From: an uncultured Ruminococcus sp.
GTDB taxonomy: Bacteria > Bacillota > Clostridia > Oscillospirales > Acutalibacteraceae
Length of the DNA stretch: 52,577 bases
Reading direction: 5' to 3'
Assembly: GCA_902773025.1 (NCBI GenBank)
Contig: CACYDC010000183.1
Location: 1-52,577, forward strand
The notes under the pieces are model-generated. The model saw only the letters and a program-made list of their open reading frames with translations. It was not told the origin of the DNA and made no database searches. The position numbers and the translations under genes are program-made. This document shows, in pieces, positions 28,854 through 45,172 of the stretch. Numbering within the stretch: position 1 is the stretch's first letter; every line of letters starts with the position of its first letter.

Positions 28854-28902
28854 TACAGCTGAGTTTCGGTCATTATTTGTTATTATTTTTCGTTTAATAT
28901 AG

Positions 28903-29007: not shown

Positions 29008-29270
29008 TTTTGCCCTCCGAATTGACCGAACCATAGTAATATTTCGTCAAAAACACCAGTGTTAAGCTCGTAGTAAATGAAATTCTTATCCTTATATTCC
29101 ATAATTAAAGAGCATTTTTTTAACAGTCTGAGATGATAAGATAAAGCAGCAGGCGTAATTCCAAGTTTTTCGGATATTTCACCTGCATTGAGCTTACCGT
29201 CACGCAGAAGAATCAGAATATCTCTGCGCTGTGGGTCAGACAAGGCTTTGAAGGTTTCTGCAAGCCCCAT
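29004..29270 (-). CDS. ArsR-type winged-helix regulator of the SdpR autorepressor subfamily
   Basis: FKALSDPQRRDILILL ... AGEISEKLGITPAALSYHLRLLK ... IYYELN. About 88 aa, as in SdpR-like proteins. Confidence 0.88.
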   Translation of the reverse strand: MGLAETFKALSDPQRRDILILLRDGKLNAGEISEKLGITPAALSYHLRLLKKCSLIMEYKDKNFIYYELNTGVFDEILLWFGQFGGQK

Positions 29271-29280
29271 AGTACCGCCT

Positions 29281-29303
29281 CTGTTTAAAAAAACTTTAAA
29301 CAG
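29281..29303. promoter_or_regulatory. 9-5-9 inverted repeat abutting the regulator promoter and RBS (candidate operator)
   Basis: CTGTTTAAA-AAAAC-TTTAAACAG, directly downstream (minus-strand sense) of a TATAAT box. Confidence 0.5.
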
Positions 29304-29334
29304 ATTATATAATATAATAATAAGATTGTCAATA

Positions 29335-29360
29335 AGTATTTAAAAATATTTTTAAATACT
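29335..29360. promoter_or_regulatory. Perfect 12-2-12 palindrome (candidate ArsR/SmtB-type operator)
   Basis: AGTATTTAAAAA-TA-TTTTTAAATACT, verified base by base. Confidence 0.5.
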
Positions 29361-29442
29361 ATAAAGCTATCCATACTTTTGCCAATAATTTATAAAAAAA
29401 GGGAATTAAGGTTGTTATCCTTCCGAAAATATCGTTAATTTG

Positions 29443-29471
29443 TTGACAAAACGTAAATAAGAAATTATAAT
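29443..29471 (+). promoter_or_regulatory. Consensus sigma-A promoter of the glycopolymer operon
   Basis: TTGACA (29443-29448), 17 nt, TATAAT (29466-29471). Predicted TSS is near 29478, about 290 nt upstream of the first CDS. Confidence 0.65.
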
Positions 29472-29480
29472 ATTACTGAA

Positions 29481-29595
29481 TTATAACCGCAAAGTATGTC
29501 CCCCATCTTTAAGGCGGCGGAGGACATATTGCTTGTTGAAAGCAAAGCTTTTAACCGCAAAGTTTTGTCACTCTCAGTTAAGGCAGGGAGTGCTA
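29481..29595 (+). repeat. Tandem leader modules: AACCGCAAAGT + hairpin, twice, separated by TTGCTTGTTGAAAGCAAAGCTTTT
   Basis: 11-mer at 29485-29495 and 29553-29563. 24-mer at 29529-29552. Hairpins at 29496-29527 and 29569-29592 have different stems, and both loops contain TTAAGGC. Confidence 0.7.
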
Positions 29596-29766
29596 TACAA
29601 TAGTAGTACAGTGGAGTCAGGCCAAGCACTGAACTGAATTAAACAAAGGGATTGATTTTACTTGCATTGAGCGAAGTATATAATCAGTAATTAAATGGGG
29701 AACTATATTTGCGGTGTTGTGAATCAGTTTATCCCTTATTTCAAAAATATATAGGGCTGTGTTGTT

Positions 29767-30870
29767 ATGACGGTTTCTTTGTGTATTATTGCATATAACG
29801 AACAGAATTCATTACCATCGCTGATGAGTGATGTCCTTGCTCAGACATATCCTCATGAACTAACAGAAATTGTATTTGTTGACAGCTGTTCATCGGATGG
29901 TACTCGTGATTTATTTGAATCATTTTCAGAAAAATATAAAAATGAATATTTGAGAATTGCGGTTCTGGATAATCCCCGAAAAATCCAGGCTGCCGGTTGG
30001 AATACAGCAATAAGCTATGCAGGCGGAGATGTTATAATCCGGGTTGATGCGCATGCATCAATTCCGCCGCAGTTTATCGAAAATAATATAAAAACGATAG
30101 AGTCGGGGGAATATGTGTGCGGCGGGGCAAGGCCGAGCAATATTTCAGAGCCTACACCATACCGTGAAATGCTTCTTCTTGCAGAAAGCTCAATGTTCGG
30201 CAGTTCGATAGCATCCTACAGAAGACAAGGAAATGGTAAAGAATATGTTTCGTCACTGTTTCATGGAGCATACCGCAGAGAGGTATTTGGAAAGGTCGGA
30301 GGATTTAACGAATCTTTGGGGAGAACCGAGGATAATGAGCTGCATTGGCGAATAAGGCAGAATGGATATAAAATATGCAAGAGTGATGACATTATATCAT
30401 ATCAGAACATAAGGCCGACACTGTTTTCAATGCTCAGACAGAAATTTGCAAACGGAAAATGGATTGGGCTGACATTGGGTGTATGTCCGGGATGTCTGTC
30501 TGTTTTTCATTTTGTACCATTATGCTTTGTAATGGCAATAATAGTATGTATTGCGCTGATGGTGGTAGGTCTGTCAACAGGTATGAGCGTGTTTTCACTG
30601 CCAATAATTGGTTTAGGTATAATGTACGCAGCGGCTGATTTGCTGATGTCAGTGTCTGCAATAATATCTGTAAAGCAGTTCAATGGGTATATGCTGCTGC
30701 TGTGGTTAATATTTCCGATGCTCCATATTATATACGGGGTCGGCACAATAACAGGATTGATATATATGCCGATATGGAAAAGCCGGCTGGACGGTTCGGC
30801 AGAAAGAGAAATCGAAGAAGTTAAGAAACGAATAGCAGAAAAAACTGCAAAAACGGAGGAAATAACATGA
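29767..30870 (+). CDS. Family 2 glycosyltransferase (ExoA-like) with C-terminal membrane domain
   Basis: SLCIIAYNE ... VDSCSSDGT ... RVDAHA GT-A core, followed by about four TM helices. Confidence 0.85.
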   Translation: MTVSLCIIAYNEQNSLPSLMSDVLAQTYPHELTEIVFVDSCSSDGTRDLFESFSEKYKNEYLRIAVLDNPRKIQAAGWNTAISYAGGDVIIRVDAHASIPPQFIENNIKTIESGEYVCGGARPSNISEPTPYREMLLLAESSMFGSSIASYRRQGNGKEYVSSLFHGAYRREVFGKVGGFNESLGRTEDNELHWRIRQNGYKICKSDDIISYQNIRPTLFSMLRQKFANGKWIGLTLGVCPGCLSVFHFVPLCFVMAIIVCIALMVVGLSTGMSVFSLPIIGLGIMYAAADLLMSVSAIISVKQFNGYMLLLWLIFPMLHIIYGVGTITGLIYMPIWKSRLDGSAEREIEEVKKRIAEKTAKTEEIT

Positions 30871-31799
30871 CAAGTACTGATCTTGTGTTTGACAAAAGGG
30901 GAAGGGCAGCAAGATTTTTTGATGGAATAAAAGATGCATTGCTGCAAATACCAAGAGAGCACAGAGGTTTTGGAAAGCAGACAATAATGCTTGCAAAACA
31001 GGATCTTCTAAAAACATATAAAGGCGCAGTTATAGGACCGTTATGGGCGCTTGTAAAGCCGGTGTTTCAGTTATTTGTATATTGGTTTGCGTTCTCTATA
31101 CTAAGAGGAACATCGAGCAAGGAAATGGGCGTTGAGTATTTTCTGTTTATAATGTCAGGATTTGTGCCCTGGTTTTTCATGAGTGATTGTATTTCTCGCG
31201 GATCAAAATCTATAGCCGATAACCGGCAATTTGTAAATAAGGTATCATTTCCGGTATCTGTAATAATGACATATACTACGATATCAAAGTTTTACATTCA
31301 TGTATTTCTTTTATCACTGAGTTATCTTTATATAACACTTGTCGGAGGGATACACCCGAGTATTTATAACATACAGCTGATTTTTCTTGCACCGCTGATG
31401 TTTTTGTTTTTCCTTGCGCTGACGTGGTCTCTTGCGCCGATGAGTGCATTCAGTAAGGATTTTTCAAATTTTATAAATACAATAATGTCTGGATTGTTCT
31501 GGTTATCTGCGATCGGATACGATTCGTATACACTTAAAAATGAAACGATCCGAAATATTCTTTTGTTTAATCCGCTTGCTTATTTTGTAAATGCATACAG
31601 AAAAGCATTGATATGTAACTGCTGGTTCTGGGAAGCGCCGAATTATCCTGCAAAGCAGGCAGAAAAAATGCTTGCAGACGGTATACATCTCCATCCTTTA
31701 TGGGAGAATGCGATATTGATAGCAGAGTTTGCTTTTGTAATAATACTTGGCATTTACAATTATAACCGCTTGAGAAAAGATCTTCCGGATGTACTTTGA
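30867..31799 (+). CDS. ABC-2 type polysaccharide/teichoic acid export permease (TagG/Wzm-like)
   Basis: The N-terminus ...KQDLLKTYKGAVIGPLWALVKP... is typical of TagG/Wzm, with six TM segments. ATGA overlap with the upstream gene. Confidence 0.85.
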   Translation: MTSTDLVFDKRGRAARFFDGIKDALLQIPREHRGFGKQTIMLAKQDLLKTYKGAVIGPLWALVKPVFQLFVYWFAFSILRGTSSKEMGVEYFLFIMSGFVPWFFMSDCISRGSKSIADNRQFVNKVSFPVSVIMTYTTISKFYIHVFLLSLSYLYITLVGGIHPSIYNIQLIFLAPLMFLFFLALTWSLAPMSAFSKDFSNFINTIMSGLFWLSAIGYDSYTLKNETIRNILLFNPLAYFVNAYRKALICNCWFWEAPNYPAKQAEKMLADGIHLHPLWENAILIAEFAFVIILGIYNYNRLRKDLPDVL

Positions 31800-33076
31800 T
31801 AGAGGACATAAAGCGCGTTTGTTCGGCTGAAAACGAAGGCGGCATTGCCGCCATGGATAATAAAAGGGTGTGTGGAATGGAGGAAACGCTGTTTCAGAAG
31901 CTGCAAAGAGTCAGATTCGGAGATATCGGACATATGTTTCTGTTTTTGTTTGCATTGCCGATTGCTCTGATATATAAGCTTTTTCGCAGGGATATGTGGC
32001 TGATATGTGATAATAAAAACGAAGCAAGAGATAATGGATATCATCTGTATAAGTATATACGAAAGAATTATCCGGAGCAGGATGCAGTATATGCAATTAG
32101 TAAGAGATCTCCCGATTATGCAAGAGTTAAGGATCTTGGCAAGGTAGTGAATTACGGGACATTTCTTCATTGGATATTCTATCTTGCTGCAAAAAAGAAT
32201 ATCAGTTCACAAAAAGGCGGAAAGCCGAATGCAGCGGTGTGTTATTTTCTTGAGGTAAACGGAATACTAAAAAACACGAGGGTATTTTTGCAGCATGGTA
32301 TAGTAAAGGATGATATGCCGTGGCTTTATTATGTAAATACAAAGATGAGACTGTTTGTATGTACCTCGGCAAGAGAGGTAAAATATGTAAACGAAAACTT
32401 CGGATATCCGGAGGGATATGTAAAACAGCTTGGAATATGCCGTTTTGATGCATTGTTTGATATGCAGGTCAAGGAAAAACAGATACTTCTGATGCCCACA
32501 TGGAGAAGCTGGATAGCTACGCCGACAACGGCATCATATGAGATAGAAGATATATCCGAATTCAGGAATACGGAATTTTTCAAAGGCTGGAATGAATTTC
32601 TGGGAAGCGAAAGGCTTCACAATATTCTGAAGAAAAATGATTTAAAGCTTATATTTTATCCTCACAGAGATATGCAGGCGTTTCTCAAATATTTTGATAT
32701 AAGAAATGAAAATATAATAATTGCAAAATGGCCTGAATATGACGTTCAGGAGCTTTTGAAGGAAAGCAGATACCTTATTACAGATTATTCGAGTATAGCA
32801 ATGGATTTTGCATATATGAAAAAAAGACTTATGTACTATCAGTTTGATTATCAGGATTTTCGTAAGGGGCAGTATCCGGAAGGGTATTACAGCTACGAAA
32901 AAGACGGCTTCGGACCGGTATGCTATGAGCTTGATAAGGCATTAGATGAGCTTGAAGCAGCAATAAGTGAGAATTATGAGAATAAAGAAATATATCTCAG
33001 ACGTCACAGTGATTTTTTTGATTTATATGATAATCAGAACTGCGAAAGAAACTATCAGGCAATCAAGGAGTTATAA
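31796..33076 (+). CDS. CDP-glycerol glycerophosphotransferase family protein (TagB/TagF-like), stand-alone
   Basis: ARDNGYHLYKY, LLMPTWRSW and ITDYSSIAMDFAYM motifs. The start is uncertain (TTG 31796, or ATG 31853/31877). Confidence 0.85.
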   Translation: MIEDIKRVCSAENEGGIAAMDNKRVCGMEETLFQKLQRVRFGDIGHMFLFLFALPIALIYKLFRRDMWLICDNKNEARDNGYHLYKYIRKNYPEQDAVYAISKRSPDYARVKDLGKVVNYGTFLHWIFYLAAKKNISSQKGGKPNAAVCYFLEVNGILKNTRVFLQHGIVKDDMPWLYYVNTKMRLFVCTSAREVKYVNENFGYPEGYVKQLGICRFDALFDMQVKEKQILLMPTWRSWIATPTTASYEIEDISEFRNTEFFKGWNEFLGSERLHNILKKNDLKLIFYPHRDMQAFLKYFDIRNENIIIAKWPEYDVQELLKESRYLITDYSSIAMDFAYMKKRLMYYQFDYQDFRKGQYPEGYYSYEKDGFGPVCYELDKALDELEAAISENYENKEIYLRRHSDFFDLYDNQNCERNYQAIKEL

Positions 33077-33078
33077 AT

Positions 33079-34089
33079 ATGAATACAGCAGAGGCACAAA
33101 ACAAAATAGATTTCGTGCTGATCTGGGTAGACGGAAACGACCCTGAGTGGCTGGAAGAAAAGAGCCGGTATGACGGAAGTGCTGTTACCGGAAATACCGC
33201 AGTACGTTTTCGTGATTGGGACAATCTTCAGTATTGGTTCCGAGGAGTGGAGAGATTTGCGCCATGGGTCAATAAAGTGCATTTTGTAACATGGGGACAT
33301 TTGCCGAAATGGCTTGATACAACCCATCCAAAACTTCATATTGTGAATCACAGGGATTATATACCGCACGAATATTTGCCGACATTCAATGCAAATCCGA
33401 TTGAAGTAAATCTGCACAGGATCCCAGGACTTAGCGAACAGTTTGTTTTCTTTAATGACGATATGTTTATAACTGCTCCGGTAAAGCCTGAGGATTTCTT
33501 TAAAAATGGACGGCCATGTGATGCATATGGACTGAATTGTATATATTTTGTAGAGGACAGTGTCGGACATATCAATGGCTGTGATCTTGAACAGATCAAT
33601 AATCATTTCAAAAGCAGCAAGGCAGTGATACGGGCAAACAGAAGAAAATGGTTCAATGTAAAAAACGGACTGAGAAATAATATAAAGACCATGATGCTAA
33701 GCACATGGGATTGGTTTCCCGGATTTTATTATGATCATTTGCCCAGCAGTTTTCTGAGATCCTCATTTGAAGAAGTATGGGAAAATTGCGGCGAAGCGCT
33801 AGATAATACATGTCGCTGCCGTTTCAGAAGTGGTTTGAATGTCAATCAATGGCTGATAAAGTACTGGCAGCTGTGCAAGGGAATAAGTGTTCCAAGAAAG
33901 GAACCCGGAAAAGCATATCAGCTTAAAAATGAAGAGATTCCCAAAGCGTTGGCTGCGCTGAGAAACGGAACACATAAACTTATTTGTCTTAATGATACGG
34001 CTATGACAGCGGATTTTGAAAGGATTTGCAGAGAAGTTAAGGATAACTTTCAGAAGCTATTGCCCGAGAAATCTGCGTTTGAAAAATAA
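33079..34089 (+). CDS. Stealth family hexose-1-phosphate transferase, paralogue 1
   Basis: CR1 IDFVLIWVDGNDPEW. CR2/CR3 RFRDWDNLQYWFRGVERFAPWVNKVHFVTWGHLPKWL ... LPTFNANPIEVNLHRIPGLSEQFVFFNDDMF. Confidence 0.8.
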   Translation: MNTAEAQNKIDFVLIWVDGNDPEWLEEKSRYDGSAVTGNTAVRFRDWDNLQYWFRGVERFAPWVNKVHFVTWGHLPKWLDTTHPKLHIVNHRDYIPHEYLPTFNANPIEVNLHRIPGLSEQFVFFNDDMFITAPVKPEDFFKNGRPCDAYGLNCIYFVEDSVGHINGCDLEQINNHFKSSKAVIRANRRKWFNVKNGLRNNIKTMMLSTWDWFPGFYYDHLPSSFLRSSFEEVWENCGEALDNTCRCRFRSGLNVNQWLIKYWQLCKGISVPRKEPGKAYQLKNEEIPKALAALRNGTHKLICLNDTAMTADFERICREVKDNFQKLLPEKSAFEK

Positions 34090-34110
34090 TGGTATTAAGG
34101 AGATATGGAT

Positions 34111-35265
34111 ATGAAGCTTAGCTTGTCGAAAAATGATACTCTTGTAATAAAGGGAGTAGCTATTATTTTTCTAGTTTTTTACCATAGTATGGCAACAAAA
34201 CAAAGACTGCTGGGACATGATATAAGTTTTTTTCCGTTTACCAATTATTATGCATTTTATATATTTGAGAGTATGAATGTATGTGTCGGTACATTTGCAT
34301 TTATGTCATCATTTGGACTGACAAGAACAATTACTCATAAATATCTGAAAAACGGCAAATCTTCGTTAGGTGCTGCTGAAAGTACAGATTTTCTGACGAG
34401 GAGAACTATTTCGCTGATGATGGCTTTTTTTATTCCTTTTGTTGCGTGTACATCAGTATCGCTGATATTTGCGCACCATAATCCATACGGACACGGCGAA
34501 ACATTTGTATTGAATCTGATAATGGATATGTTAGGATTTGCAGGCGCACTGGGCACACCGATGATGGTAGGCACATGGTGGTATATGAGTTTTGCGCTGA
34601 TTATCATATTCCTTATGCCAATGACAGTAAATCTGTACAGAAAACATGGTATAGGAGTACTGATTCCGTTTATAGTACTTCCACTGCTTATAGACGCTAA
34701 ATTCTACAATGGAACAACACTGAACAATATGACACGCTGGCTGTTGTGTATTCCCTTCGGAGTAATGTTTGCGGACGGAAATATATTTGAACAAATGAAG
34801 GAAATGACAATAGGAAAGAATAAAGTACTGTCTAAAATTGTCAAATTTATTCTCTGGACAGCGATACTTTTGCTGGCTTTTCGCCTGAGAAAGCAGGTAT
34901 GGACATGGAAATTTGCATATTACATTATCAGTACCGTACTTCCTGTTATATTTGTATACTGGTTGTATGAGTTTGTATGCGGAGTTCCGATTATAAATAA
35001 GCTGTTTGCATTTTTCGGAAAATATTCCTCTGATATATTTTTTATGCATACCTTTATCAGAGCAGTATGGTTCCCTGATTTTACGTATTCACTGAAATAC
35101 TGGTATGCTGTATTTGCATTTGTAATGGGCGCATCGCTTGTAATGGCAATAGTTGCTGATCTTTTCAGAAAGCTGATAAGCTGGGGAAAGCTTACATCGT
35201 TTGTTTCTGAAAAAGCAAGCTGTCTGACTGCAAAGGCGCTGCCGTTACAGACCAAAGACGCATGA
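34111..35265 (+). CDS. Acyltransferase family 3 (AT3) integral membrane O-acyltransferase
   Basis: About 10 TM segments and the N-terminal IKGVAIIFLVFYH motif typical of AT3. Confidence 0.8.
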   Translation: MKLSLSKNDTLVIKGVAIIFLVFYHSMATKQRLLGHDISFFPFTNYYAFYIFESMNVCVGTFAFMSSFGLTRTITHKYLKNGKSSLGAAESTDFLTRRTISLMMAFFIPFVACTSVSLIFAHHNPYGHGETFVLNLIMDMLGFAGALGTPMMVGTWWYMSFALIIIFLMPMTVNLYRKHGIGVLIPFIVLPLLIDAKFYNGTTLNNMTRWLLCIPFGVMFADGNIFEQMKEMTIGKNKVLSKIVKFILWTAILLLAFRLRKQVWTWKFAYYIISTVLPVIFVYWLYEFVCGVPIINKLFAFFGKYSSDIFFMHTFIRAVWFPDFTYSLKYWYAVFAFVMGASLVMAIVADLFRKLISWGKLTSFVSEKASCLTAKALPLQTKDA

Positions 35266-35369
35266 TATATTAGTGATGAATTTATGCTGACGATTAGTTT
35301 AATGATATACCTAGTATGCCGGGATTCTGAACCTGAAGCGCAGTGTAAAATTGAAACGAGGATAAAGTG

Positions 35370-36374
35370 ATGAAAAATATTGATAAAATTGATTTTGTCA
35401 TGATATGGGTCGACGGAAATGATCCGGAATGGCAAAAGGAAAAAAATAAATATGATTCATCTGACGAAAAGGGTGACAGTACTGTTGTCCGTTACAGAAG
35501 CTGGGATAATCTTCAATATTGGTTCAGAGGTGTGGAAAAATTTGCGCCATGGGTAAACAAGATACATTTTGTTACATGGGGACATCTTCCGCCGTGGCTG
35601 AATAAGAATCATCCTAAGCTTAACATCGTTAATCATAAGGATTATATTCCCGAAAAGTATCTTCCGACATTCAATGCAAATACAATCGAGCTTAATTTTC
35701 ACCGTATTGAAGGGCTTGCAGAGCAGTTTGTGTATTTCAACGACGATATGTTTATAACTGATTATGTCAGACCGGAGGATTTTTTCCGGGGCGGCAGACC
35801 GATGGATACTTATTCGCTCGACTGTATATTTTTTGGTAAAAAGAGCGCAGGATTTTTTAACGGAAATGATATTGAGCTTATCAATATCAATTTTGATAAA
35901 CGAAAATGTATGAAGCGTGATTTTATGAAATGGTATAGCCTTAAAAATGGTTTGAAAAGGGTTATAAAGACAAATGCGCTGAATATGTGGCCGTGGTTCC
36001 CGGGAATATATTATAATCATTTGCCAAGTAATTTTCTTAAGGATACATTTGTCAGGGTGTGGGAAAAAGAAGAAGAAACTCTTGACAATACCTGTAAAGA
36101 TAAATTTCGTACAAAATCAAATTGTAATCAATGGCTTATGAAATTCTGGCAGCTTGCCGAGGGTACGCCGGTTCCGAGAAGTACAAAAATCGGCAGATGT
36201 TTTCATATCAAGGATAATATATGGGATAAAGCGCTTTCATCGATTGAAAACGGAAGATACAGACTTATTTGTATTAATGATACAATATATACGAAGGATT
36301 TTGAATTACAGAAACAGCAGGTAATAAATGCATTTGATAAGCTTTTGCCTGAAAAATCAGAATTTGAAATATGA
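35370..36374 (+). CDS. Stealth family hexose-1-phosphate transferase, paralogue 2
   Basis: Same CR1-CR4 pattern as 33079-34089, and more than half of the residues are identical by eye. Confidence 0.8.
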   Translation: MKNIDKIDFVMIWVDGNDPEWQKEKNKYDSSDEKGDSTVVRYRSWDNLQYWFRGVEKFAPWVNKIHFVTWGHLPPWLNKNHPKLNIVNHKDYIPEKYLPTFNANTIELNFHRIEGLAEQFVYFNDDMFITDYVRPEDFFRGGRPMDTYSLDCIFFGKKSAGFFNGNDIELININFDKRKCMKRDFMKWYSLKNGLKRVIKTNALNMWPWFPGIYYNHLPSNFLKDTFVRVWEKEEETLDNTCKDKFRTKSNCNQWLMKFWQLAEGTPVPRSTKIGRCFHIKDNIWDKALSSIENGRYRLICINDTIYTKDFELQKQQVINAFDKLLPEKSEFEI

Positions 36375-36391
36375 TAGCTGAGGAGAGTAAT

Positions 36392-39082
36392 ATGGAACAG
36401 AACTGGAAATATCTGATCTCTGTCGTAATGCCAGTGTATAACACCGAAAAATTTCTGAGGCAGTCGGTAGACAGCGTTATTTCGCAAACACTCGGTTTTG
36501 AAAAAAACATCCAGCTGATACTCGTAAACGACGGCAGTACAGATACAAGCGAAGAGATTTGTCTTGAATATAAGGATAAATATCCGGAGAATGTTGTATA
36601 TGTAAAACAGGAAAACGTCGGAGTCAGTGCGGCAAGAAATAATGGTATTGCTTATATTGAAGGTAAATATGTAAATTTTCTGGATAGTGACGACTGTTGG
36701 AATGAAGATGCATTAGAAAAGCTGTATCAGTTTTTCGAGGAAAATTATGAAAGCATAGATATAGTTGCCGCCAGAAAAAAGCTGTTTGATGGAGCAACGG
36801 GCTATCATGGACTTGATTATAAGTTTGCTAAAACCGGAGTAATAGATTTGTGTGAAAGCTATGATATAGTTCATATGGATGTTACAAGCTCACTCATCAA
36901 AAATGAGGCAATAGGAGAGATAAGATTCAGTACTAATCTCAGGTACGGTGAAGATGCATGTTTTGTACAGACGATTCTCCTGAATAAATGTGCTATCGGA
37001 GTAGTCAGAGAAGCAGAGCATCAGTACAGAATGAGAACGGATGGAACTTCAGCACTTCAGAAAGAAGGCGGTTCGGAAAGCTATTATTTTGATTCGCCGG
37101 TATATTTTCATAAATATCTGATAGAGCTGTCGAAGCAGATGTATGGAGAGGTAAAAAAATTCATACAGTATGTCATAATGTACGATATAACATGGCGTGT
37201 AAAAAAACCTGTATATAAGCTGTTGCCTGAGGATAAAGCAAGTCAATACAAGGACTTGATAGTTGGGATACTTCAGGAAATAGAAGATGTAGTGATATAC
37301 AAGCAGCGCAGTATATATATGAATATGAAGATGTATTGTTTGTCATTGAAGTACGGTCATGATGTACGTAAGGATTTAAAATACGATTCAGGAAGAATAA
37401 TGTATAAAGATTTCGTAACAATAGATCTGGCTTCAGCGAAAACACTTCTTATATGGGACTATTTTGAACTTCATGGCAATATACTTCGTCTTGAGGGAAA
37501 AGACAACTGTTGGATGAGAGGAAATGATTACAATTATTATGCTAAGGTGGGAGGAGAGATATATTATCCTTCCTATGTAGATTGTCCTAAATTTGACCTC
37601 ATAACAATGGAAGGCAGAGTAAATAAGGGAAGAGCAGTAATATATGAAATACATCTTAACCCTGATAAAGAAACAAAAATATCGTTCTTTTATCGTAAGG
37701 GTAATGATACAAAAGAAATCAGCACATCGCTTGGAAGGTTTTCGCATCTTCCAAAGGTAGAGGGCGGCTATTATGCAAGAGGGAAGTTTATTATACAGCC
37801 GGATAAAAACGGCGTGATAGTAAAGCCGTACAGTGATGAACTGAGAGATGAACTCGAAGAAAATTATCGCTCAATTCTTTTGAGTCAGGGAATGGATGAA
37901 GCAGTTGAGTGGAGAAAGCGGTATTTTTCGGAAATAGAACATAAGCATAGGGAGATATGGCTGATTTCAGACAGAGCCTATGTTGCAAATGATAACGGCG
38001 AACATTTTTTCCGCTATATGAACAAATGGCAGCATAGAAAAATGATAGATACCTATTTTAATATAAACGAGGAGAGCGCCGATTATGAGCGAATGAAAAA
38101 AATAGGTAAAGTTATCCCGTATGATACTGATGAGTATAAAATGAAGTTTTTGCTTGCGGATAAGATAATATCGTCGAGCGCGTCGGATTATCTGTTTAAT
38201 CCATTCGGAGATATGAGGAAATATCTTATAGATTTGATTAGTTTTGAATTTGTATATCTAAAGCATGGAATAATAAAGGACGATATGTCGGGATGGCTGA
38301 ATCGTTATAATAAAAATATAAGTATGATGGTGACCGCTGCAATACCTGAGTATTTGTCAATAGTAAACGGTAATTATTGTATGACAAAGGATATACCTGT
38401 AATAACAGGTTTGACGCGATACGATGAACTCTACAGAAAAAGCAAGAAAAAGCATCCGAAGAAAAAAATACTGATAGTGCCGACATGGCGTCAGAGTATA
38501 AAGGGAAGCTTCGATGCAAAGCAGAATAAGAGCGTATATTTTGATAAATTCAAAGAAACAGAGTATTTCAGATTTTATAATGACCTTATTAACAATGAGC
38601 ATTTGCTTGATGTAATGAGAGAGAACGGATATACAGGACTATTGTGTATGCATCCTATGCACAGTGAACAATGGAAGGATTTCCAGAGTAATGATGTATT
38701 CAGTGTGAATGAGGGATATGTAGATTATCAGAATGAATTTGTAAGCAGTTCAGTATTGGTAACAGATTATTCAAGCGTTGCATTTGATTTTGCATATCTT
38801 CATAAGCCGGTGGTATATACACAGTTCGATAAGGAAGAATTCTACAAGAAACACACATATAATGAGGGTTATTTTGATTATGAGCGTGACGGTTTCGGTC
38901 CCGTATGCTATGATGCAGAAACTGCAGTGGAAGAGCTTATTCAGCTGATAGAAAACGGCTGTGCTGAAAATGATAAATATCTTAAACGAATAGATGATTT
39001 TTATCCATATCATGATTCTCATTGCTGCAGACGAGTATATGATAATATAAAGGACCTGAAATATAAATACGGAGTAGTATGA
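36392..39082 (+). CDS. Bifunctional GT2 glycosyltransferase / TagF-like CDP-glycerol glycerophosphotransferase (putative teichoic-acid-like polymerase)
   Basis: N-terminal GT-A (VVMPVYN ... NDGSTD ... FLDSDD). C-terminal TagF motifs (ANDNGEHFFRY, IVPTWRQS, VTDYSSVAFDFAYL). Confidence 0.88.
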   Translation: MEQNWKYLISVVMPVYNTEKFLRQSVDSVISQTLGFEKNIQLILVNDGSTDTSEEICLEYKDKYPENVVYVKQENVGVSAARNNGIAYIEGKYVNFLDSDDCWNEDALEKLYQFFEENYESIDIVAARKKLFDGATGYHGLDYKFAKTGVIDLCESYDIVHMDVTSSLIKNEAIGEIRFSTNLRYGEDACFVQTILLNKCAIGVVREAEHQYRMRTDGTSALQKEGGSESYYFDSPVYFHKYLIELSKQMYGEVKKFIQYVIMYDITWRVKKPVYKLLPEDKASQYKDLIVGILQEIEDVVIYKQRSIYMNMKMYCLSLKYGHDVRKDLKYDSGRIMYKDFVTIDLASAKTLLIWDYFELHGNILRLEGKDNCWMRGNDYNYYAKVGGEIYYPSYVDCPKFDLITMEGRVNKGRAVIYEIHLNPDKETKISFFYRKGNDTKEISTSLGRFSHLPKVEGGYYARGKFIIQPDKNGVIVKPYSDELRDELEENYRSILLSQGMDEAVEWRKRYFSEIEHKHREIWLISDRAYVANDNGEHFFRYMNKWQHRKMIDTYFNINEESADYERMKKIGKVIPYDTDEYKMKFLLADKIISSSASDYLFNPFGDMRKYLIDLISFEFVYLKHGIIKDDMSGWLNRYNKNISMMVTAAIPEYLSIVNGNYCMTKDIPVITGLTRYDELYRKSKKKHPKKKILIVPTWRQSIKGSFDAKQNKSVYFDKFKETEYFRFYNDLINNEHLLDVMRENGYTGLLCMHPMHSEQWKDFQSNDVFSVNEGYVDYQNEFVSSSVLVTDYSSVAFDFAYLHKPVVYTQFDKEEFYKKHTYNEGYFDYERDGFGPVCYDAETAVEELIQLIENGCAENDKYLKRIDDFYPYHDSHCCRRVYDNIKDLKYKYGVV

Positions 39083-40104
39083 TGGAAAAAGAATATTTAG
39101 TTTCGGTCGTAATTCCTGTTTATAAAGTGGAAGCATGTCTTTCGCAGACAGTAGAATCTGTTTTAGCTCAGACTATCGGTTTTGAAGAGAATATCCAGAT
39201 AATATTCGTAAACGACGGCAGTCCGGATAACAGTGAAGAGATTTGTCTTGAATATCAGGACAGATATCCTGATAATATTGTGTACCTGAAAAAGCAAAAC
39301 GGTGGAGTCAGTTCTGCAAGAAATGAAGGAATACCGTATATACGCGGTAAATATACAAATTTTCTTGATAGTGATGATTTATGGGAAAAGGATGCATTCA
39401 GGCATATGATAAGATTGTTTGACGAAAACTATGAGAAGACGGATGTTGTCAGTGCGAGAAAACAATTCTTTGAAGCAAGACAGGGTTGGCATCATCTTGA
39501 TTACAGATTTGAAAAAACAAAAATAGCCGATCTCACACGGGAATTTGATTTTGTACAGCTTGATGTAACCGGAGCAATGATAAAAACAGAAGCGATCGGA
39601 GAACACAGATTTTCCGAAAAATTGCAATATGGTGAGGATGCAGCTTTTGTCAGTACAATACTGCTAGAGAAGAGAACACTCGGAGTCTGCCGTGAAGCAG
39701 TTCATATGTATCGGAAAAGAAGCGACGAAAGTTCAGCGCTGCAAAATGAAAATTCAAATCTGAGCTATTACTTTGATTCACCAAAGTATTTTCATGAATA
39801 TTTGTTTTCGCTGTCCGAGGAAAAATATGGATATGTAGAACGGTTTATACAATACACGGTAATGTATGATATATCATGGAGAGTCAGAAAGAATGTATCA
39901 TCATATCTGACAGATGAACTATATGAAAGATACAGCAAAATTATTCTTGATCTTCTGAAAAGGATAGATGATAAAGTAATATTAAAACAAAGAAATCTGT
40001 GGAAGAAGCAAAAGCTATACTGTCTTATGAAAAAGCGGGGTATGGAACGGACAGCAGGGCTTTATGCAAAGCTGAGCAAAACACGGATAATGTTCAATAA
40101 ATAG
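39079..40104 (+). CDS. GT2 glycosyltransferase, a truncated paralogue of the flanking fusion genes with no TagF domain
   Basis: Collinear with the first ~320 aa of 36392-39082 and 40213-42903, then stops. ATGA overlap upstream and a ~100-nt non-coding gap downstream. Confidence 0.7.
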   Translation: MMEKEYLVSVVIPVYKVEACLSQTVESVLAQTIGFEENIQIIFVNDGSPDNSEEICLEYQDRYPDNIVYLKKQNGGVSSARNEGIPYIRGKYTNFLDSDDLWEKDAFRHMIRLFDENYEKTDVVSARKQFFEARQGWHHLDYRFEKTKIADLTREFDFVQLDVTGAMIKTEAIGEHRFSEKLQYGEDAAFVSTILLEKRTLGVCREAVHMYRKRSDESSALQNENSNLSYYFDSPKYFHEYLFSLSEEKYGYVERFIQYTVMYDISWRVRKNVSSYLTDELYERYSKIILDLLKRIDDKVILKQRNLWKKQKLYCLMKKRGMERTAGLYAKLSKTRIMFNK

Positions 40105-40212
40105 AATGGTTTCAAAATAAGCATCGGATGATTATGAGCTGTATTGCAAAAAACAATACAGTTGTTCGGGGCAGAAAGCCTTGATAATATTTAAAAATTA
40201 CAGGTGATGTAT

Positions 40213-42903
40213 ATGAAGGATTATAAATTCAAGATCTCAGTCGTAATACCGGTATACAATGTGGAAAAATATCTTGCTGAAACACTGGATTCTGTGATAG
40301 GCCAAAGCATAGGCTTTGAAGAGAATATACAGATGATACTCGTGAATGACGGCAGTCCTGACAATAGTGAGGAGATCTGTCTGGAATATCAAAGCCGATA
40401 TCCTGACAATATTGTATATGTAAAAAAGGAAAACGGAGGAGTAAGCTCCGCAAGAAACGAAGGGCTGAAATATGTCGAAGGAAAGTACGTGAATTTTCTT
40501 GATAGTGACGATATCTGGAGAGAAAGGGCAATTGAGATTGCTCTTGACTATTTTGATAAACATTATGACGAGATAGATGTTGTAGCTGCGAGAAAAAGAT
40601 TTTTTGACGCAGATAAGAGCTTTCATAAACTTGACTATAAGTTTAAGAAAACTAAGATCGTTGATCTCAGAGATGAGTATGAATTTATCCAGATGGATGT
40701 CACGGGAGCGTTTATCAAAGCAGAGGCGATCGGAGATACACGTTTCAGTACTGACCTGAAATACGGAGAGGACGCTCAATTCATTAATACTATAATTCTT
40801 GAAAAATGCATGCTTGGAGTATGCAGAGAGGCAATGCATTGGTACCGAAAAAGATCCGATGACAGTTCAGCGCTACAGAATGAGCTAAAAAGCGAAAGCT
40901 ACTACTTCAATACTCCGAAATATCTTCACCAATATTTGATAGACTTGTCGGTAAAAAAATACGGAAAGGTCTTAAAATTCATACAGTTCATGATAATGTA
41001 TGATATATCCTGGAGATTAAAAAAGAACCCCGCAAACATTCTGGAATATCTTACGCAGGAACAGTATGAGGAGTATTGTGACATACTCAAAAACCTGATA
41101 AAACAGCTTGACGACAGAGTTATTTTCAAGCAGAAAGAGCTGTTTATGAATCAAAAAATGTTCTGCCTGTGCCTGAAGCATGGAACTGATATAAGAGAAG
41201 AACTGGAATATGATCATAGTAATCTCCTGTATAAAAACCTTATAACTATGAATCTCAATAAGGCAAAAACAAACATTATATGGTTTTTTATGGATGTCAA
41301 GGATGATGTGCTTTACCTGGAAGGAAAGGACAATTTCTGGCTTAACGAGGATCAATATGAGTTTTTTGCAAAAGTCGGAGATAAAGAATATCACCCGACA
41401 TACTATAATGCACCCGCGTTTGACAGCAGTACGGTATTCGGTTTGCTTCGCAAGGGACGAGCTGTCAGGCTTGAAATACCGCTTACAGCAGGAGAAAAAT
41501 CAATAATACAGTTTTATTTCAGATTCAAGGATAATGATCGTCTGATATATACAACTATGGGAAAATTCACGCATATACCGCCGACATGGGGCGGATATTA
41601 TGCAAAAGATGATTATCTGATAAAGCTTACGGGAAAATGCCTTGGTGTATATCCTTATTCAAAAGAGCTTCACAATAAGTTTGAAAACTTCTATTGTGAG
41701 CATCTGAAGAAAATTAATAAGGAATATCTGATAAAGTACAGAAAGCTTTATAAGGTTATGAAAAGCTTCTATAAAAATAAGAAGATATGGCTTATATCAG
41801 ACAGAACAAATAAGGCAAATGATAACGGTGAGCATATGTTCCGTTATATCAACGCTCACGGAGCTAAAAATATCGAAGCGTTTTATTGTATACGCAAGGA
41901 TTGTGCGGATTATCAGAAAATGAAACGAATAGGAAAGGTTTTGCCTTACGAAACGCCGAAATACAGACTGTATTTTCTGATTGCTGATAAGATCATATCA
42001 TCATCCGGCGGAGAATATGTGATCAATGCATTCGGCGGTGACAGAAAATATCTTTATGACCTGTATAAATTTGATTATGTATTTTTACAGCACGGAGTAA
42101 CAAAGGATGATATCTCAGGATGGATCAATCGTTTCAATAAAAATATGAGGCTGATAGTAACGGCAGGAAAGCCGGAACAGAAATCATTCTGTGAACCGAA
42201 TTATGCATATCCTCCGGAGGTACCGCTTCTTACAGGTTTCCCAAGACATGACAATCTGCTGAGATTGCAGGAATTAAAGCCTGTTGAAAAAAAGCTTCTT
42301 ATAATACCTACATGGCGAAAGAGCATAGAGGGGAGCTATAATCCTTCTACGACCGAAAGCATATATTTTGAAGGGTTTAAGGATACGGAATATTATAAAT
42401 TCTATAATTCACTTATAAACGATGAGCGTCTGTGTAAATGCATGAAGAAGCACGGATATAAGGGTGTGCTTTGTATGCATCCGATCCACAGCACTCAATG
42501 GGTTGACTTCAAACCAAACGAAGTATTCAGTATTAATCATGGAAATGTGGATTATCAGAGTGAATTTACATCTTCCGCATTACTCGTAACCGACTATTCA
42601 AGCGTATTCTTTGATTTCGGCTTTTTAAAGAAACCGGTCGTATATTGTCAGTTTGACAAGGAAGATTTTTTTGCCGGACATACTTACGATGAAGGTTATT
42701 TCAGCTATGAGGAAAATGGGTTTGGTCCGGTGTGCTATGATTTGGATGAAACCGTAAAGGCAATAATTTCAAATATAGAAAACGGATGCCGTAATTCTGA
42801 GAAATATATAAAAAGAATTGAAGATTTCTATGAATACTTTGATTCAAACAGTTGCAAACGTGTTTACGAAGGAATTCTCAAACTTAAGGATCTTAAGCCT
42901 TGA
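40213..42903 (+). CDS. Bifunctional GT2 glycosyltransferase / TagF-like CDP-glycerol glycerophosphotransferase, second full-length paralogue
   Basis: Same architecture: VVIPVYN ... NDGSPD ... FLDSDD; ANDNGEHMFRY, IIPTWRKS, VTDYSSVFFDFGFL. Confidence 0.88.
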   Translation: MKDYKFKISVVIPVYNVEKYLAETLDSVIGQSIGFEENIQMILVNDGSPDNSEEICLEYQSRYPDNIVYVKKENGGVSSARNEGLKYVEGKYVNFLDSDDIWRERAIEIALDYFDKHYDEIDVVAARKRFFDADKSFHKLDYKFKKTKIVDLRDEYEFIQMDVTGAFIKAEAIGDTRFSTDLKYGEDAQFINTIILEKCMLGVCREAMHWYRKRSDDSSALQNELKSESYYFNTPKYLHQYLIDLSVKKYGKVLKFIQFMIMYDISWRLKKNPANILEYLTQEQYEEYCDILKNLIKQLDDRVIFKQKELFMNQKMFCLCLKHGTDIREELEYDHSNLLYKNLITMNLNKAKTNIIWFFMDVKDDVLYLEGKDNFWLNEDQYEFFAKVGDKEYHPTYYNAPAFDSSTVFGLLRKGRAVRLEIPLTAGEKSIIQFYFRFKDNDRLIYTTMGKFTHIPPTWGGYYAKDDYLIKLTGKCLGVYPYSKELHNKFENFYCEHLKKINKEYLIKYRKLYKVMKSFYKNKKIWLISDRTNKANDNGEHMFRYINAHGAKNIEAFYCIRKDCADYQKMKRIGKVLPYETPKYRLYFLIADKIISSSGGEYVINAFGGDRKYLYDLYKFDYVFLQHGVTKDDISGWINRFNKNMRLIVTAGKPEQKSFCEPNYAYPPEVPLLTGFPRHDNLLRLQELKPVEKKLLIIPTWRKSIEGSYNPSTTESIYFEGFKDTEYYKFYNSLINDERLCKCMKKHGYKGVLCMHPIHSTQWVDFKPNEVFSINHGNVDYQSEFTSSALLVTDYSSVFFDFGFLKKPVVYCQFDKEDFFAGHTYDEGYFSYEENGFGPVCYDLDETVKAIISNIENGCRNSEKYIKRIEDFYEYFDSNSCKRVYEGILKLKDLKP

Positions 42904-42925: not shown

Positions 42926-44719
42926 ATGAAAGAGCTTGAGTATCCTTTTGACAGTGAATATATAATAAAGAAGAGAAAATCGCTCAGACGTACGCTGCTT
43001 TCTGATGGAAGCAGCCGTCTAAAAAAAAAGATAGCGGTATTTGGCGGTTCTACAACTAATGATATAGTAGTTTATCTTGACTTGTTTTTACTCAACCATG
43101 GAATTGAAGCTGAATTTTACCAGTCTGAATACGGACAGTACTGGCAGGATGCAATGTTTCCGAGCGAGGAGCTTATAAACTTTGCGCCGGATATAGTGTA
43201 TATTCATACTACGGGAAGAAATATTCTGAATTCACCGTCAAGTTCGGATACGAGGGAACAGGTAAAAGAGCTTCTGAATAGTGAATATAGTAAATTTGAG
43301 CAGATGTGGGATAAAATCAGAGAAACCTATCATTGTCCGATAATACAGAATAATTTTGAAATGCCGTTTTATCGTCTGATGGGAAATAGGGACTGCTCAG
43401 ATTACAGAGGACGTTCAAATTTTCTTACCAGACTTAACAGTATGTTTTATGAGTATTCAGAAAAACATGAAGGCTTCTACATTAATGATATCAATTTTAT
43501 ATCCGCATCATATGGAATAAAACAATGGAGTGATCCTTCGTACTGGAATATGTACAAATATGCGATGTGTATAGAAGCAATACCGGAGTTTTCCTTTAAC
43601 CTGTCGAATATTATAAAGTCTGTATTCGGAAAGAATAAAAAGGCGCTTGCGCTTGATCTTGATAATACACTATGGGGCGGAGTTGTAGGAGATGATGGAG
43701 TTGATGGGATACAGATCGGCCAGGAAACAGGAGTTGCCCAGAGCTATTATGAATTCCAGAGTTATGTAAAGTCGTTGAAATCGATCGGAGTAATATTGAC
43801 AGTTTGTTCAAAAAACGATCATGAAAATGCAATAGCGGGTTTGAATCATCCGGAAGGTGCGCTTAAGCCTGAGGATTTTATTATCATTAAAGCAAACTGG
43901 GAAAACAAAGACAGGAATATAATAGAAACTGCGAGTGAATTGAATATCATGACAGATGCAATAGTATTTGCAGACGATAATCCTGCCGAGCGTGAAATAG
44001 TCAGGGCGCAGGTGAACGGTGTTTCAGTTCCAGTTATGGATGGAGTAGAGAATTATATAGTAAACATTGACCGGAACGGATATTTTGAAGTCACAAATTT
44101 CAGCGCAGATGATATCAAGCGCAATGAAATGTATAAGGCAAATGCACAGCGGGCAGCACAACAGGCATCATTTGCAGATTACGGAGAATATCTGAGAAGT
44201 CTTGAGATGACGGCAGTTATAGATGATTTTATTCCAGTATATCTTCAAAGGATAACACAGCTTACGAATAAGAGCAATCAGTTTAATGTAACTACAAAGA
44301 GATACACACCGACAGAAATGGAGGCAGTATATCAGAGTGACGAATATATTCGTCTATACGGAAAGCTGATCGACAAATTCGGAGATAACGGAGTAGTGTC
44401 TGTAGTTATAGGGCATAAGAACGTTGAGATATTAGACATAGACCTATGGATAATGAGCTGTAGGGTATTGAAAAGAGATATGGAGCTTGCGATGCTTGAC
44501 AAAGTAGTTGAGCGGTGTAAAGCGTGTGGAATAGGGAAAATCAGGGGATATTATTATCCTACTGCCAAAAACAAAATGGTGCGTGAATTGTACGGTACCT
44601 TCGGATTTGAAAAAATCAGTGAGGACGAAAAAGGAAATACCGTATGGGAACTTGATATCAGCGGATATGAGCCAAAGAATCATGTTATTGATGTCAGAGA
44701 GAATTCAGAAGAAAAATAA
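42926..44719 (+). CDS. FkbH-like HAD-IIIC family protein (three-part: N-terminal domain, HAD-IIIC core, C-terminal GNAT-like domain)
   Basis: HAD motif I LDLDNTLWGGVVGDDG, CSKND and FADDNPAERE, with the C-terminal MSCRVLKRDME segment typical of FkbH-like proteins. RBS AGGAGA. Confidence 0.8.
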   Translation: MKELEYPFDSEYIIKKRKSLRRTLLSDGSSRLKKKIAVFGGSTTNDIVVYLDLFLLNHGIEAEFYQSEYGQYWQDAMFPSEELINFAPDIVYIHTTGRNILNSPSSSDTREQVKELLNSEYSKFEQMWDKIRETYHCPIIQNNFEMPFYRLMGNRDCSDYRGRSNFLTRLNSMFYEYSEKHEGFYINDINFISASYGIKQWSDPSYWNMYKYAMCIEAIPEFSFNLSNIIKSVFGKNKKALALDLDNTLWGGVVGDDGVDGIQIGQETGVAQSYYEFQSYVKSLKSIGVILTVCSKNDHENAIAGLNHPEGALKPEDFIIIKANWENKDRNIIETASELNIMTDAIVFADDNPAEREIVRAQVNGVSVPVMDGVENYIVNIDRNGYFEVTNFSADDIKRNEMYKANAQRAAQQASFADYGEYLRSLEMTAVIDDFIPVYLQRITQLTNKSNQFNVTTKRYTPTEMEAVYQSDEYIRLYGKLIDKFGDNGVVSVVIGHKNVEILDIDLWIMSCRVLKRDMELAMLDKVVERCKACGIGKIRGYYYPTAKNKMVRELYGTFGFEKISEDEKGNTVWELDISGYEPKNHVIDVRENSEEK

Positions 44720-44739
44720 AAAACGAAGGAGAAAAGACA

Positions 44740-44982
44740 ATGGACACAAAAACGATTTATGCAAGATTAAACAAGGTATTCAGAGATGTATTTGACGATG
44801 AGGATATTACAGTTGGTCCAAAGACTACAGCAAATGACATTGAGGACTGGGATAGCCTTGAGCATATCACATTAATGAGTGCTGTGCAGAGAGAATTCAG
44901 GGTAAAGTTCACAATGGGAGAAATATCATCCATGAAGAATGTCGGAGAAATGGCCGATATAATTGCTAAGAGGGCAAAGTGA
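44740..44982 (+). CDS. Acyl/peptidyl carrier protein
   Basis: 80 aa with the phosphopantetheine-attachment motif DWDSLEHITL. Confidence 0.8.
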   Translation: MDTKTIYARLNKVFRDVFDDEDITVGPKTTANDIEDWDSLEHITLMSAVQREFRVKFTMGEISSMKNVGEMADIIAKRAK

Positions 44983-45128
44983 TAAGATCTTTTGCTGAGT
45001 GAGTAATATCTTTGTTATGCAAAAAATCTTCGGAAATAAGTCTGTTATGCTGTTTTATAGTGAGCTAAGCGTTTTTTATATGCGAACGCTTATGCTCGGG
45101 CAACGGGCCGGTTTTTTGTTTTTCTGCT

Positions 45129-45172
45129 GTATCTCTATCCCGGTAGGGATAGAGATACTTCTTTGTATTTTT
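45129..45172 (+). terminator. Strong intrinsic terminator closing the glycopolymer operon
   Basis: Perfect 13-bp stem GTATCTCTATCCC / GGGATAGAGATAC, loop GGTA, then TTCTTTGTATTTTT. Confidence 0.85.

Follow-up and report, generated by a model that had tools for sequence, protein, structure and literature searches.

The 52,577-nt contig CACYDC010000183.1 of an uncultured Ruminococcus sp. (assembly GCA_902773025.1), analysed over its whole length of 52.6 kb and referred to below as the window, contains a teichoic-acid-like operon whose final two genes encode a predicted FkbH-like acyl loader and a small acyl carrier protein (ACP). We propose, with a probability of about 0.55, that this pair supplies glyceryl-ACP for O-acylation of a polymer and that its membrane partners are encoded elsewhere in the genome. 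The sequences show the domains, the conserved active site, the gene linkage among relatives, the loss of the membrane partners from the window and purifying selection on the pair. The glyceryl identity of the acyl group, the loading of the ACP, the polymer as acceptor and the partner acting in trans are what we infer from comparison with related loci and known systems. On these comparisons, the best-supported model is that the pair would belong to a Dlt-like relay in which an FkbH-type loader replaces DltA.

The FkbH-like loader and its carrier protein

The features of the pair are as follows.

42926..44719, + strand: gene for the predicted FkbH-like acyl loader, 597 aa (ATG at 42926, stop at 44719)
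43028-43618, + strand: FkbH_N domain, residues 35-231 (Pfam match)
43637-44611, + strand: FkbH domain (HAD-IIIC plus GNAT fold), residues 238-562 (NCBIfam TIGR01686)
43655-43657, + strand: predicted HAD nucleophile D244 (family conservation)
44459-44461, + strand: predicted acyl-accepting C512 (family conservation)
44740..44982, + strand: carrier protein gene, 80 aa, starting 21 nt 3' of the FkbH-like gene
44854-44856, + strand: predicted phosphopantetheine site S39 in WDSLEH (motif)

The FkbH-like gene is preceded by an aggag ribosome-binding site and starts 22 nt after the stop codon of the preceding GT2-Glyphos_transf polymerase gene, and both the spacing and the ribosome-binding site are consistent with co-expression of the pair and the polymerase gene. 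The encoded protein matched the Pfam FkbH_N model (42 bits versus a cutoff of 27), the NCBIfam "FkbH domain" model TIGR01686 (259.8 bits versus 146.65) and the HAD-SF-IIIC model (58.8 bits versus 35.75), with the core motif DLDNTLWGG located at residues 244-252. The AlphaFold2 model, for which 59 homologues were used, reached a mean pLDDT of 94, and Foldseek matched its first ~380 residues to 3SLR (Bacteroides BF1531) and its C-terminal domain to GNAT acetyltransferases, for example RimI (E ~1e-8, target TM-score ~0.7). Profiles and model thus point to a protein of three predicted domains (FkbH_N, HAD-IIIC and GNAT-fold) and bear out a preliminary description, made from the letters of the sequence, of a ~600-aa FkbH-like HAD-IIIC protein with a DLDNTLWGG core and a GNAT-like C-terminal domain.

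Across 59 diverse homologues (31-60% identity), the HAD residues D244, D246, T248, S295, K296, N297, K328, D350 and D351 are invariant or at least 90% conserved, HAD motifs I-IV (DxDxT, S/T, K, DD) are all present in the FkbH-like protein, and S511-C512-R513 in the GNAT-fold domain is likewise at least 90% conserved. The catalytic HAD aspartates and the acyl-accepting residue, to which the preliminary description had drawn attention as points to be checked by alignment, are therefore all in place (D244, D246 and C512). From 1,3-bisphosphoglycerate, the enzymes of the zwittermicin, oxazolomycin and tetronate pathways make glyceryl-ACP via a cysteine thioester and a HAD-type dephosphorylation. 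When the window protein was aligned with the FkbH homologue from the B. thuringiensis zwittermicin cluster (L091; loci are cited by their L numbers), two homologues from tetronate-type clusters (L092 and L093), two alphaproteobacterial homologues and two closer relatives, 41 positions were identical in all eight sequences, including the HAD set, S511-C512-R513 and several Arg, Asn and Tyr residues. These invariant positions argue for the same substrate and chemistry in the window enzyme, and because the catalytic residues that it has in common with the zwittermicin and tetronate homologues are all conserved, a glyceryl unit is our best guess for the loaded group.

That the same machinery carries another acyl group, such as a phosphoglycerate that retains its phosphate, lactate or another small hydroxy acid, strikes us as rather improbable. 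The identity of the window protein to the zwittermicin- and tetronate-cluster homologues is just 26-29%, the family is very large (13,941 clusters at 50% identity, E <= 1e-3), to our knowledge only a handful of its members have been assayed, and VOC, methyltransferase or MaoC/SDR genes, whose products would be able to modify a tethered unit, are present in addition at some related loci. Against this stand the 41 positions that are invariant despite such divergence, the entire HAD set and Cys512 among them, and the finding that neither the four-gene unit described below nor the window operon encodes tailoring enzymes.

The 80-aa carrier protein with a DSLEH motif was likewise recovered, the motif falling at D38-S39-L40-E41-H42. 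It aligned with the solved putative acyl carrier protein 2LML over 69 residues (E = 5e-19), with WDSLEH facing WDSLSH, and matched NCBIfam ACP models, all below their cutoffs. The motif is at least 90% conserved across 75 partner ACPs, the window ACP retains all positions that are at least 90% conserved in the family, and the WDSLxH motif is common to ACPs that are paired with FkbH-like genes in other phyla.

The MBOAT-DHHW-FkbH-ACP unit and its truncation in the window lineage

We retrieved 80 loci from species-representative genomes whose FkbH-like proteins are 68-88% identical to that of the window, and annotated their open reading frames (ORFs) with seed proteins. The loci stem mostly from metagenome-assembled genomes of rumen and gut Ruminococcus, Acutalibacteraceae and Oscillospiraceae, are mostly metagenome-assembled fragments and overlap in lineage between sets, so that the following counts are not independent; cultured carriers are Pseudoruminococcus massiliensis and Hominenteromicrobium mulieris. 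The ACP gene lies directly 3' of the FkbH-like gene in 81 of 83 related loci, a gene for a DHHW/AlgX-type SGNH protein lies directly 5' of the pair in 74 of the 78 loci with enough upstream DNA, and both an MBOAT and a DHHW gene precede the pair in 64 of 68 such loci. Only the window, L008, L009 and L011 have enough upstream DNA and yet no DHHW gene. Glyphos_transf or Stealth genes, whose co-occurrence with the pair the preliminary description had singled out for a survey, are also found in 20 of the 42 loci whose upstream sequence spans 9 kb or more.

All cassette MBOATs end in NPFLY(F/W)RF, which corresponds to the FxYxxF acyl-shuttle hexapeptide known from DltX and from the C-terminus of PatA-type MBOATs (PMC12148441). 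The nearest solved structure of the cassette MBOAT is DltB (E = 1e-21), and its only NCBIfam match is the DltB model, at 150 bits versus a cutoff of 375. A closer resemblance of ACP-coupled than of uncoupled MBOATs to DltB was considered as a distinguishing mark and dropped, both kinds scoring 135-162 bits on the DltB model. As to the SGNH partner, it is a member of the DHHW/AlgX family and not of the DltD family; among solved structures it comes closest to 4NZK of Eubacterium siraeum (E = 5e-84) and to PatB1, a wall-polysaccharide O-acetyltransferase of B. cereus (E = 3e-9). 4NZK is EUBSIR_00411, an uncharacterised E. siraeum protein and a close homologue of the DHHW protein encoded at L033 8536-9975.

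The linkage was also evident from the side of the MBOAT. In a scan of metagenome loci, which is redundant in that many 67%-identity loci represent one human-gut lineage, DHHW-FkbH-ACP follows the MBOAT in 31 of 31 informative loci where it shares 56% identity or more with the cassette MBOAT, in three of five at 50-55% identity, and in none of 16 at 49% identity or less, 14 of these 16 having MBOAT-DHHW at most. This identity threshold points to a distinct MBOAT subgroup tied to the loader and carrier pair. Near some four-gene units we noted extra DHHW or DHHW-MBOAT copies (L077 15460-18164, L047 141-1538, L056 5131-6441, L023 1623-4369 and L140 7432-10052), which are paralogous relay components that could act in trans.

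On this basis we propose the following course of events. The FkbH-like enzyme would take a phosphorylated three-carbon acyl phosphate, by homology most likely 1,3-bisphosphoglycerate, and form a thioester on Cys512 in its GNAT-fold domain; the HAD domain (Asp244/Asp246) would remove the phosphate, and the carrier protein of 80 aa would accept the glyceryl group on the phosphopantetheine arm of its Ser39. With the arrangement of nearly all relatives, which would be the ancestral one, the acyl-ACP is the presumed donor for the adjacent DltB-like MBOAT, the tyrosine of whose C-terminal FLYFRF would shuttle the acyl group across the membrane; esterification of a wall polymer would follow outside the cell, catalysed by the membrane-anchored DHHW/AlgX-type SGNH transferase. 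The window and its closest relatives have lost the MBOAT and SGNH genes by deletion, and their pair now closes the teichoic-acid-like operon; most likely it still supplies acyl-ACP for O-acylation of this operon's polymer, with the membrane and extracellular steps being encoded elsewhere in the genome.

Several observations weigh against this proposal. First, no MBOAT, DHHW/SGNH or DltD-like gene was found in the 52.6-kb window (Pfam scans of large ORFs, and phmmer searches in which MBOAT and DHHW seeds were run against all ORFs from 55 aa upwards), nor was an MBOAT or SGNH gene found in the 10 kb flanking the MBOAT-less relatives, and the partner in trans is thus assumed. Second, stand-alone MBOAT-DHHW pairs of the cassette subtype, which could serve as such a partner, numbered zero among the 31 informative metagenome loci, a weak negative given the redundancy of that sample. 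Third, the acyl group is deduced from enzymes with just 26-29% identity, and a limited search of the open-access literature found no glyceroyl ester on a teichoic-acid-like polymer. Fourth, of the profile searches by which the preliminary description had suggested to verify the pair, TIGR01686 and HAD-SF-IIIC scored above cutoff, but Pfam PP-binding scored 19.8 bits on the carrier protein, slightly below its cutoff of 20.8, and no phosphopantetheinyl transferase gene was found in the 52.6-kb window.

How the window came to lack the membrane components can be read from its relatives. L033 and L180 show the gene order of the window (GT2-Glyphos, GT2, GT2-Glyphos) followed by MBOAT-DHHW-FkbH-ACP, whereas in the window, L008, L009, L182-L184 and L011 precisely these two genes, MBOAT and DHHW, are missing, such that the FkbH-like gene begins ~10-25 nt after the polymerase gene or, in L011, overlaps it as ATGA. 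A terminator-like hairpin (cccttgatcg...cgatcaaggg, then T's) at L033 6680-6760, between the last GT2-Glyphos gene and the MBOAT gene, suggests that the four-gene unit of L033 is transcribed separately, whereas in the window the pair is part of the polymer operon. In a neighbour-joining tree, the window grouped with L008, L009 and L182 in 153 of 200 bootstraps with L011 placed elsewhere, and all five MBOAT-less loci were monophyletic in only one of 200 bootstraps; MBOAT and DHHW were therefore most likely lost at least twice independently, to judge from this tree. Relatives that are 86-87% identical keep both genes. The absence of MBOAT and DHHW genes from the window is thus a derived deletion and not the sign of a route that bypasses them, and on this account the analogy to Dlt is closer than the preliminary description had supposed. 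The latter had noted that the locus has no adenylating enzyme and no MBOAT or DltD-like gene, which Pfam scans and phmmer extended to the whole 52.6-kb window; an adenylating (AMP-binding, DltA-type) enzyme was found neither among the large ORFs of the window (Pfam) nor in the four-gene units.

It is very unlikely that the two genes are merely leftover, i.e. a functionless remnant of a half-deleted four-gene unit. MBOAT and DHHW genes do accompany the pair in ~95% of relatives and are missing from the window, and since relatives of 86-87% identity still have them, the loss need not be old. However, neither reading frame is interrupted and no catalytic residue is missing, the MBOAT-less genotype was found in several independent samples, and dN/dS among MBOAT-less loci is 0.03-0.06. 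This range includes the comparison of L009 with L008, which have diverged to a dS of 0.78 in the FkbH-like gene (omega 0.03) and of 0.36 in the ACP gene (omega 0.015) and have a near-identical junction sequence. The pair is kept by strong purifying selection and is not decaying.

The repeated loss of MBOAT-DHHW with retention of FkbH-ACP makes a cytoplasmic use of the acyl group worth taking seriously, and we regard it as the main alternative, although an unlikely one. Before export, a lipid- or nucleotide-linked precursor would then be acylated either by an acyltransferase that is soluble or associated with a glycosyltransferase or by the FkbH-like protein through its own GNAT-fold domain, and no MBOAT/SGNH step would be needed. 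In keeping with this scenario, the reverse pattern (MBOAT-DHHW of the cassette type without FkbH-ACP) was never seen among the metagenome loci, the pair is tightly joined to the polymerase gene both in the window (22 nt) and in L011 (overlapping ATGA), and MBOAT-free FkbH-ACP pairs exist elsewhere, next to a gene for a WcbI-family putative acetyltransferase or next to VOC-family genes. On the other hand, the MBOAT-less operons have gained no gene relative to L033 and L180 that could replace the acyl transfer, the gene for the AT3 membrane acyltransferase of the window operon is missing from L011, and the window ACP keeps all family-conserved surface positions, which suggests that its partners are unchanged. 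Moreover, we know of no FkbH family member that acylates anything but a carrier protein. The 10 kb 3' of the MBOAT-less locus L009 contain no hidden acyltransferase, and their genes are those for a sigma factor and an anti-sigma protein, for ABC transporters, for a pseudouridine synthase and for a flippase-like protein.

Clusters in other phyla and comparison with known acylation systems

Plasmid homologues identified by tblastn revealed that loader, carrier and MBOAT genes also occur together outside the Firmicutes, in other gene orders. On pSymB of S. meliloti, genes for an MBOAT that ends in FLYQGF, a 409-aa protein, an ACP and an FkbH-like protein (L090 5354-10389) adjoin the rkpRST capsule export genes, and a Rhodobacteraceae plasmid encodes an ACP, an FkbH-like protein, an MBOAT and a 358-aa protein in a sulfotransferase-rich polysaccharide locus. 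The fourth proteins of these two alphaproteobacterial clusters have no detectable similarity to DHHW proteins or to each other and no NCBIfam match, and the 409-aa protein of S. meliloti has no Pfam match either; in the pSymB annotation it is called a "TonB-dependent receptor" and the FkbH-like protein a "HAD family hydrolase". Other FkbH-ACP pairs are found without an MBOAT, beside the WcbI-family or VOC-family genes mentioned above, and further homologues on plasmids belong to tetronate-type and zwittermicin clusters. Since the pairs occur beside such varied acceptor genes, the FkbH-ACP pair appears, by gene neighbourhood, to be a portable module for the supply of acyl-ACP, with couplings to different acceptors. 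The VOC (glyoxalase-fold) genes next to ACP and FkbH-like genes lie on two Paracoccaceae plasmids and one C. perfringens plasmid (L095 11356-11784, L096 9751-10218 and L097 2444-2839), and their products may alter the acyl group while it is tethered, for instance through epimerisation.

The proposed relay shares with the Dlt system (DltA, DltC, DltB, DltX and DltD) a small dedicated carrier protein for a three-carbon acyl group (a predicted one in the present case) and an anionic wall polymer as target, and in the relatives also a DltB-like MBOAT, a membrane-anchored transferase of the SGNH superfamily and an FxYxxF motif. It differs from Dlt in that an FkbH-type HAD/GNAT enzyme would act as loader instead of the adenylating DltA, in that the shuttle motif is fused to the MBOAT's C-terminus, as in PatA, rather than residing on a DltX microprotein, in the DHHW/AlgX family of the SGNH partner and the low score of the MBOAT on the DltB model (150 bits versus 375), and, for the window, in the lack of MBOAT and SGNH genes. 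The core idea of the preliminary description, a carrier-dependent decoration of wall polymers that does without an adenylating enzyme, is thus strengthened by the four-gene unit of the relatives, whose MBOAT and SGNH transferase are the two kinds of component by which known relays for polymer O-acylation are defined, whereas its suggestion of delivery to a nucleotide-sugar precursor gained no specific support.

With the glyceryl-ACP synthases of the FkbH/OzmB/ZmaN type, the window protein has in common a TIGR01686 score above cutoff, identical HAD motifs, the cysteine in Ser-Cys-Arg and a dedicated adjacent ACP, and the tetronate-cluster FkbH members also have the same three-domain architecture. 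By contrast, the zwittermicin-cluster homologue and the 367-aa FkbH-like protein of bafilomycin have no N-terminal domain. Unlike the methoxymalonyl-/hydroxymalonyl-ACP and tetronate pathways, the window has no dehydrogenase, methyltransferase, ketosynthase, polyketide synthase (PKS) or nonribosomal peptide synthetase (NRPS) gene accompanying the pair, and the context is one of wall-polymer synthesis. In particular, no dehydrogenase or methyltransferase of the FkbK/FkbI/FkbG type was found in the window.

The acetyl-CoA-dependent MBOAT-SGNH pairs (PatA/PatB, PatA1/PatB1 of B. cereus, AlgI/AlgJ/AlgX and CcsH/CcsI) resemble the relatives in having an MBOAT with a C-terminal FxYxxF followed by a DHHW/AlgX-type transferase, PatB1 being a recognisable homologue, and in their purpose, the O-acylation of extracytoplasmic glycopolymers. 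MBOAT/SGNH pathways other than Dlt use acyl-CoA and no carrier protein (PMC12148441), whereas the MBOAT subgroup of at least 56% identity described here is in every case linked to FkbH-ACP, unlike more distant MBOAT-DHHW pairs. Glycerate does occur as a substituent of bacterial surface glycans, as is known from the N-glyceroyl pseudaminic acid of Tannerella forsythia, the genes for whose N-glyceroyl groups were described as unknown in 2017, and an FkbH-domain gene, cj1302, is part of a glycan locus (flagellar glycosylation) in Campylobacter jejuni. The T. forsythia and C. jejuni systems differ in that they concern N-acyl groups on nonulosonic acids, are cytoplasmic and imply no MBOAT-SGNH relay. 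Beyond a mention of cj1302, we found no literature among open-access papers and bioRxiv that links FkbH/HAD-IIIC proteins to MBOATs, teichoic acids or polysaccharide acylation. The relay architecture and the loader chemistry are known, and their combination, along with the predicted glyceroyl ester on wall polymers, appears to be undescribed.

These comparisons lead to a broader proposal that we advance tentatively, giving it a little less than even odds: there may be a second carrier-dependent MBOAT-SGNH pathway, in which FkbH loads glyceryl from glycolysis on an ACP and an MBOAT subgroup and DHHW proteins esterify teichoic-acid-like or capsular polymers. Such a pathway would be common in rumen and gut Oscillospiraceae, its core genes would recur on alphaproteobacterial plasmids, and the window pair would represent a version that has lost the coupling to its membrane partners and become integrated into a polymer operon, a hint that its acyl-ACP is usable by another route. 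If so, it would be a second carrier-dependent MBOAT-SGNH system besides Dlt, with a loader so far studied only in polyketide and nonribosomal peptide biosynthesis, and it would provide the wall polymers of Firmicutes that abound in gut and rumen with a new uncharged, hydrophilic ester decoration, related clusters being present on plasmids of plant symbionts. This decoration could affect recognition by phages, the immune system and lectins, and the system may hint at the genes behind glyceroyl groups on bacterial glycans, which have long been missing. It should be tractable, as S. meliloti is amenable to genetics and its pSymB cluster is seemingly unstudied, at least two cultured Oscillospiraceae carry the unit, and a structure, 4NZK, exists.

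The polymer operon and the remainder of the window

The FkbH-like and ACP genes are the final two genes of a co-directional 15-kb string that starts at 29767 and has the following features.

29443..29471, + strand: promoter-like site, perfect TTGACA-17-TATAAT, 5' of the first operon gene (consensus match only)
29767..30870, + strand: GT2 glycosyltransferase, first gene of the operon (Pfam Glycos_transf_2, E = 6.8e-26)
30867..31799, + strand: ABC-2 type (TagG-like) polymer export permease (Pfam ABC2_membrane, E = 4.2e-12)
31796..33076, + strand: TagF-like CDP-glycerol glycerophosphotransferase, 426 aa (Pfam Glyphos_transf, E = 2e-31)
33079..34089, + strand: Stealth-family hexose-1-phosphate transferase (Pfam Stealth_CR1 and CR2 above cutoff, CR3 and CR4 below)
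34105..35265, + strand: AT3 membrane acyltransferase without an SGNH domain (Pfam Acyl_transf_3, E = 9.8e-13)
35367..36374, + strand: second Stealth-family transferase (Pfam Stealth_CR1 and CR2 above cutoff, CR4 below)
36371..39082, + strand: GT2 plus TagF-like bifunctional polymerase, 903 aa (Pfam Glycos_transf_2, Glyphos_transf)
39079..40104, + strand: GT2 glycosyltransferase, 341 aa (Pfam Glycos_transf_2, E = 1.3e-32)
40204..42903, + strand: GT2 plus TagF-like bifunctional polymerase, 899 aa (Pfam), directly preceding the FkbH-like gene
45094..45158, + strand: two terminator-like hairpins closing the operon (45094-45108 followed by a T run; 13-bp stem at 45129-45158)

With three Glyphos_transf domains, two Stealth proteins and one ABC2_membrane permease, the content of the operon is teichoic-acid-like, and the Pfam gene string from GT2 to GT2-Glyphos_transf together with the terminator-like hairpins after the ACP gene agrees with the position at the end of such an operon that the preliminary description had assigned to the pair. 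The operon contains neither a TagH-like ATPase nor TagD, and the window as a whole showed no gene for a tagD-like cytidylyltransferase. The sole ABC ATPase nearby (27656-28441, - strand) is paired with another ABC-2 permease (26474-27643).

That the pair feeds a polyketide, tetronate or lipid route and ends this operon only by coincidence seems to us extremely unlikely. The published work on FkbH that we found concerns polyketide or nonribosomal products, and plasmid homologues reside in tetronate-type and zwittermicin clusters. Profile scans of the window, however, detected no ketosynthase, FabH-like, E2-like, PKS or NRPS genes, the pair is co-oriented with the polymerase gene and lies 22 nt 3' of it within one promoter-to-terminator unit, and in its close relatives the linked genes are those for MBOAT and SGNH proteins and not PKS genes.

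The AT3 membrane acyltransferase was considered as a required acceptor for the acyl-ACP and rejected, since its gene is absent from L011, L014, L035, L038 and L083; it is present in L009, L013, L017, L020 and L002. AT3 is probably an independent, variable acetylation module. Similarly, the only ORF of the window that ends in F.Y..F before its stop codon (13888-14004), a DltX-like candidate, lies inside a gene on the opposite strand and was set aside as a chance match. Scans of the window with Rfam and for tRNAs gave no matches.

In the 1.3-kb intergenic region 5' of the operon (28441-29767), a second perfect TTGACA-17-TATAAT is found on the - strand (29332-29304), and the two promoter-like sites on opposite strands suggest divergent strong promoters, one for the polymer operon and one for the minus-strand ABC transporter genes. 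The operon is followed on its 3' side by aroA, aroC, pheA, a gene for a VanY-type peptidase and murD. The peptidase gene, located at 48822-50447 between the aromatic amino-acid genes and murD, encodes a 541-aa protein with Ig-like (Big_2/Big_3) repeats and a VanY/LdcB-type carboxypeptidase domain. Just before the polymer region, a 211-aa HNH endonuclease ORF (25754-26389) lies directly 3' of a pseudouridine synthase gene and could be the remnant of a mobile element.

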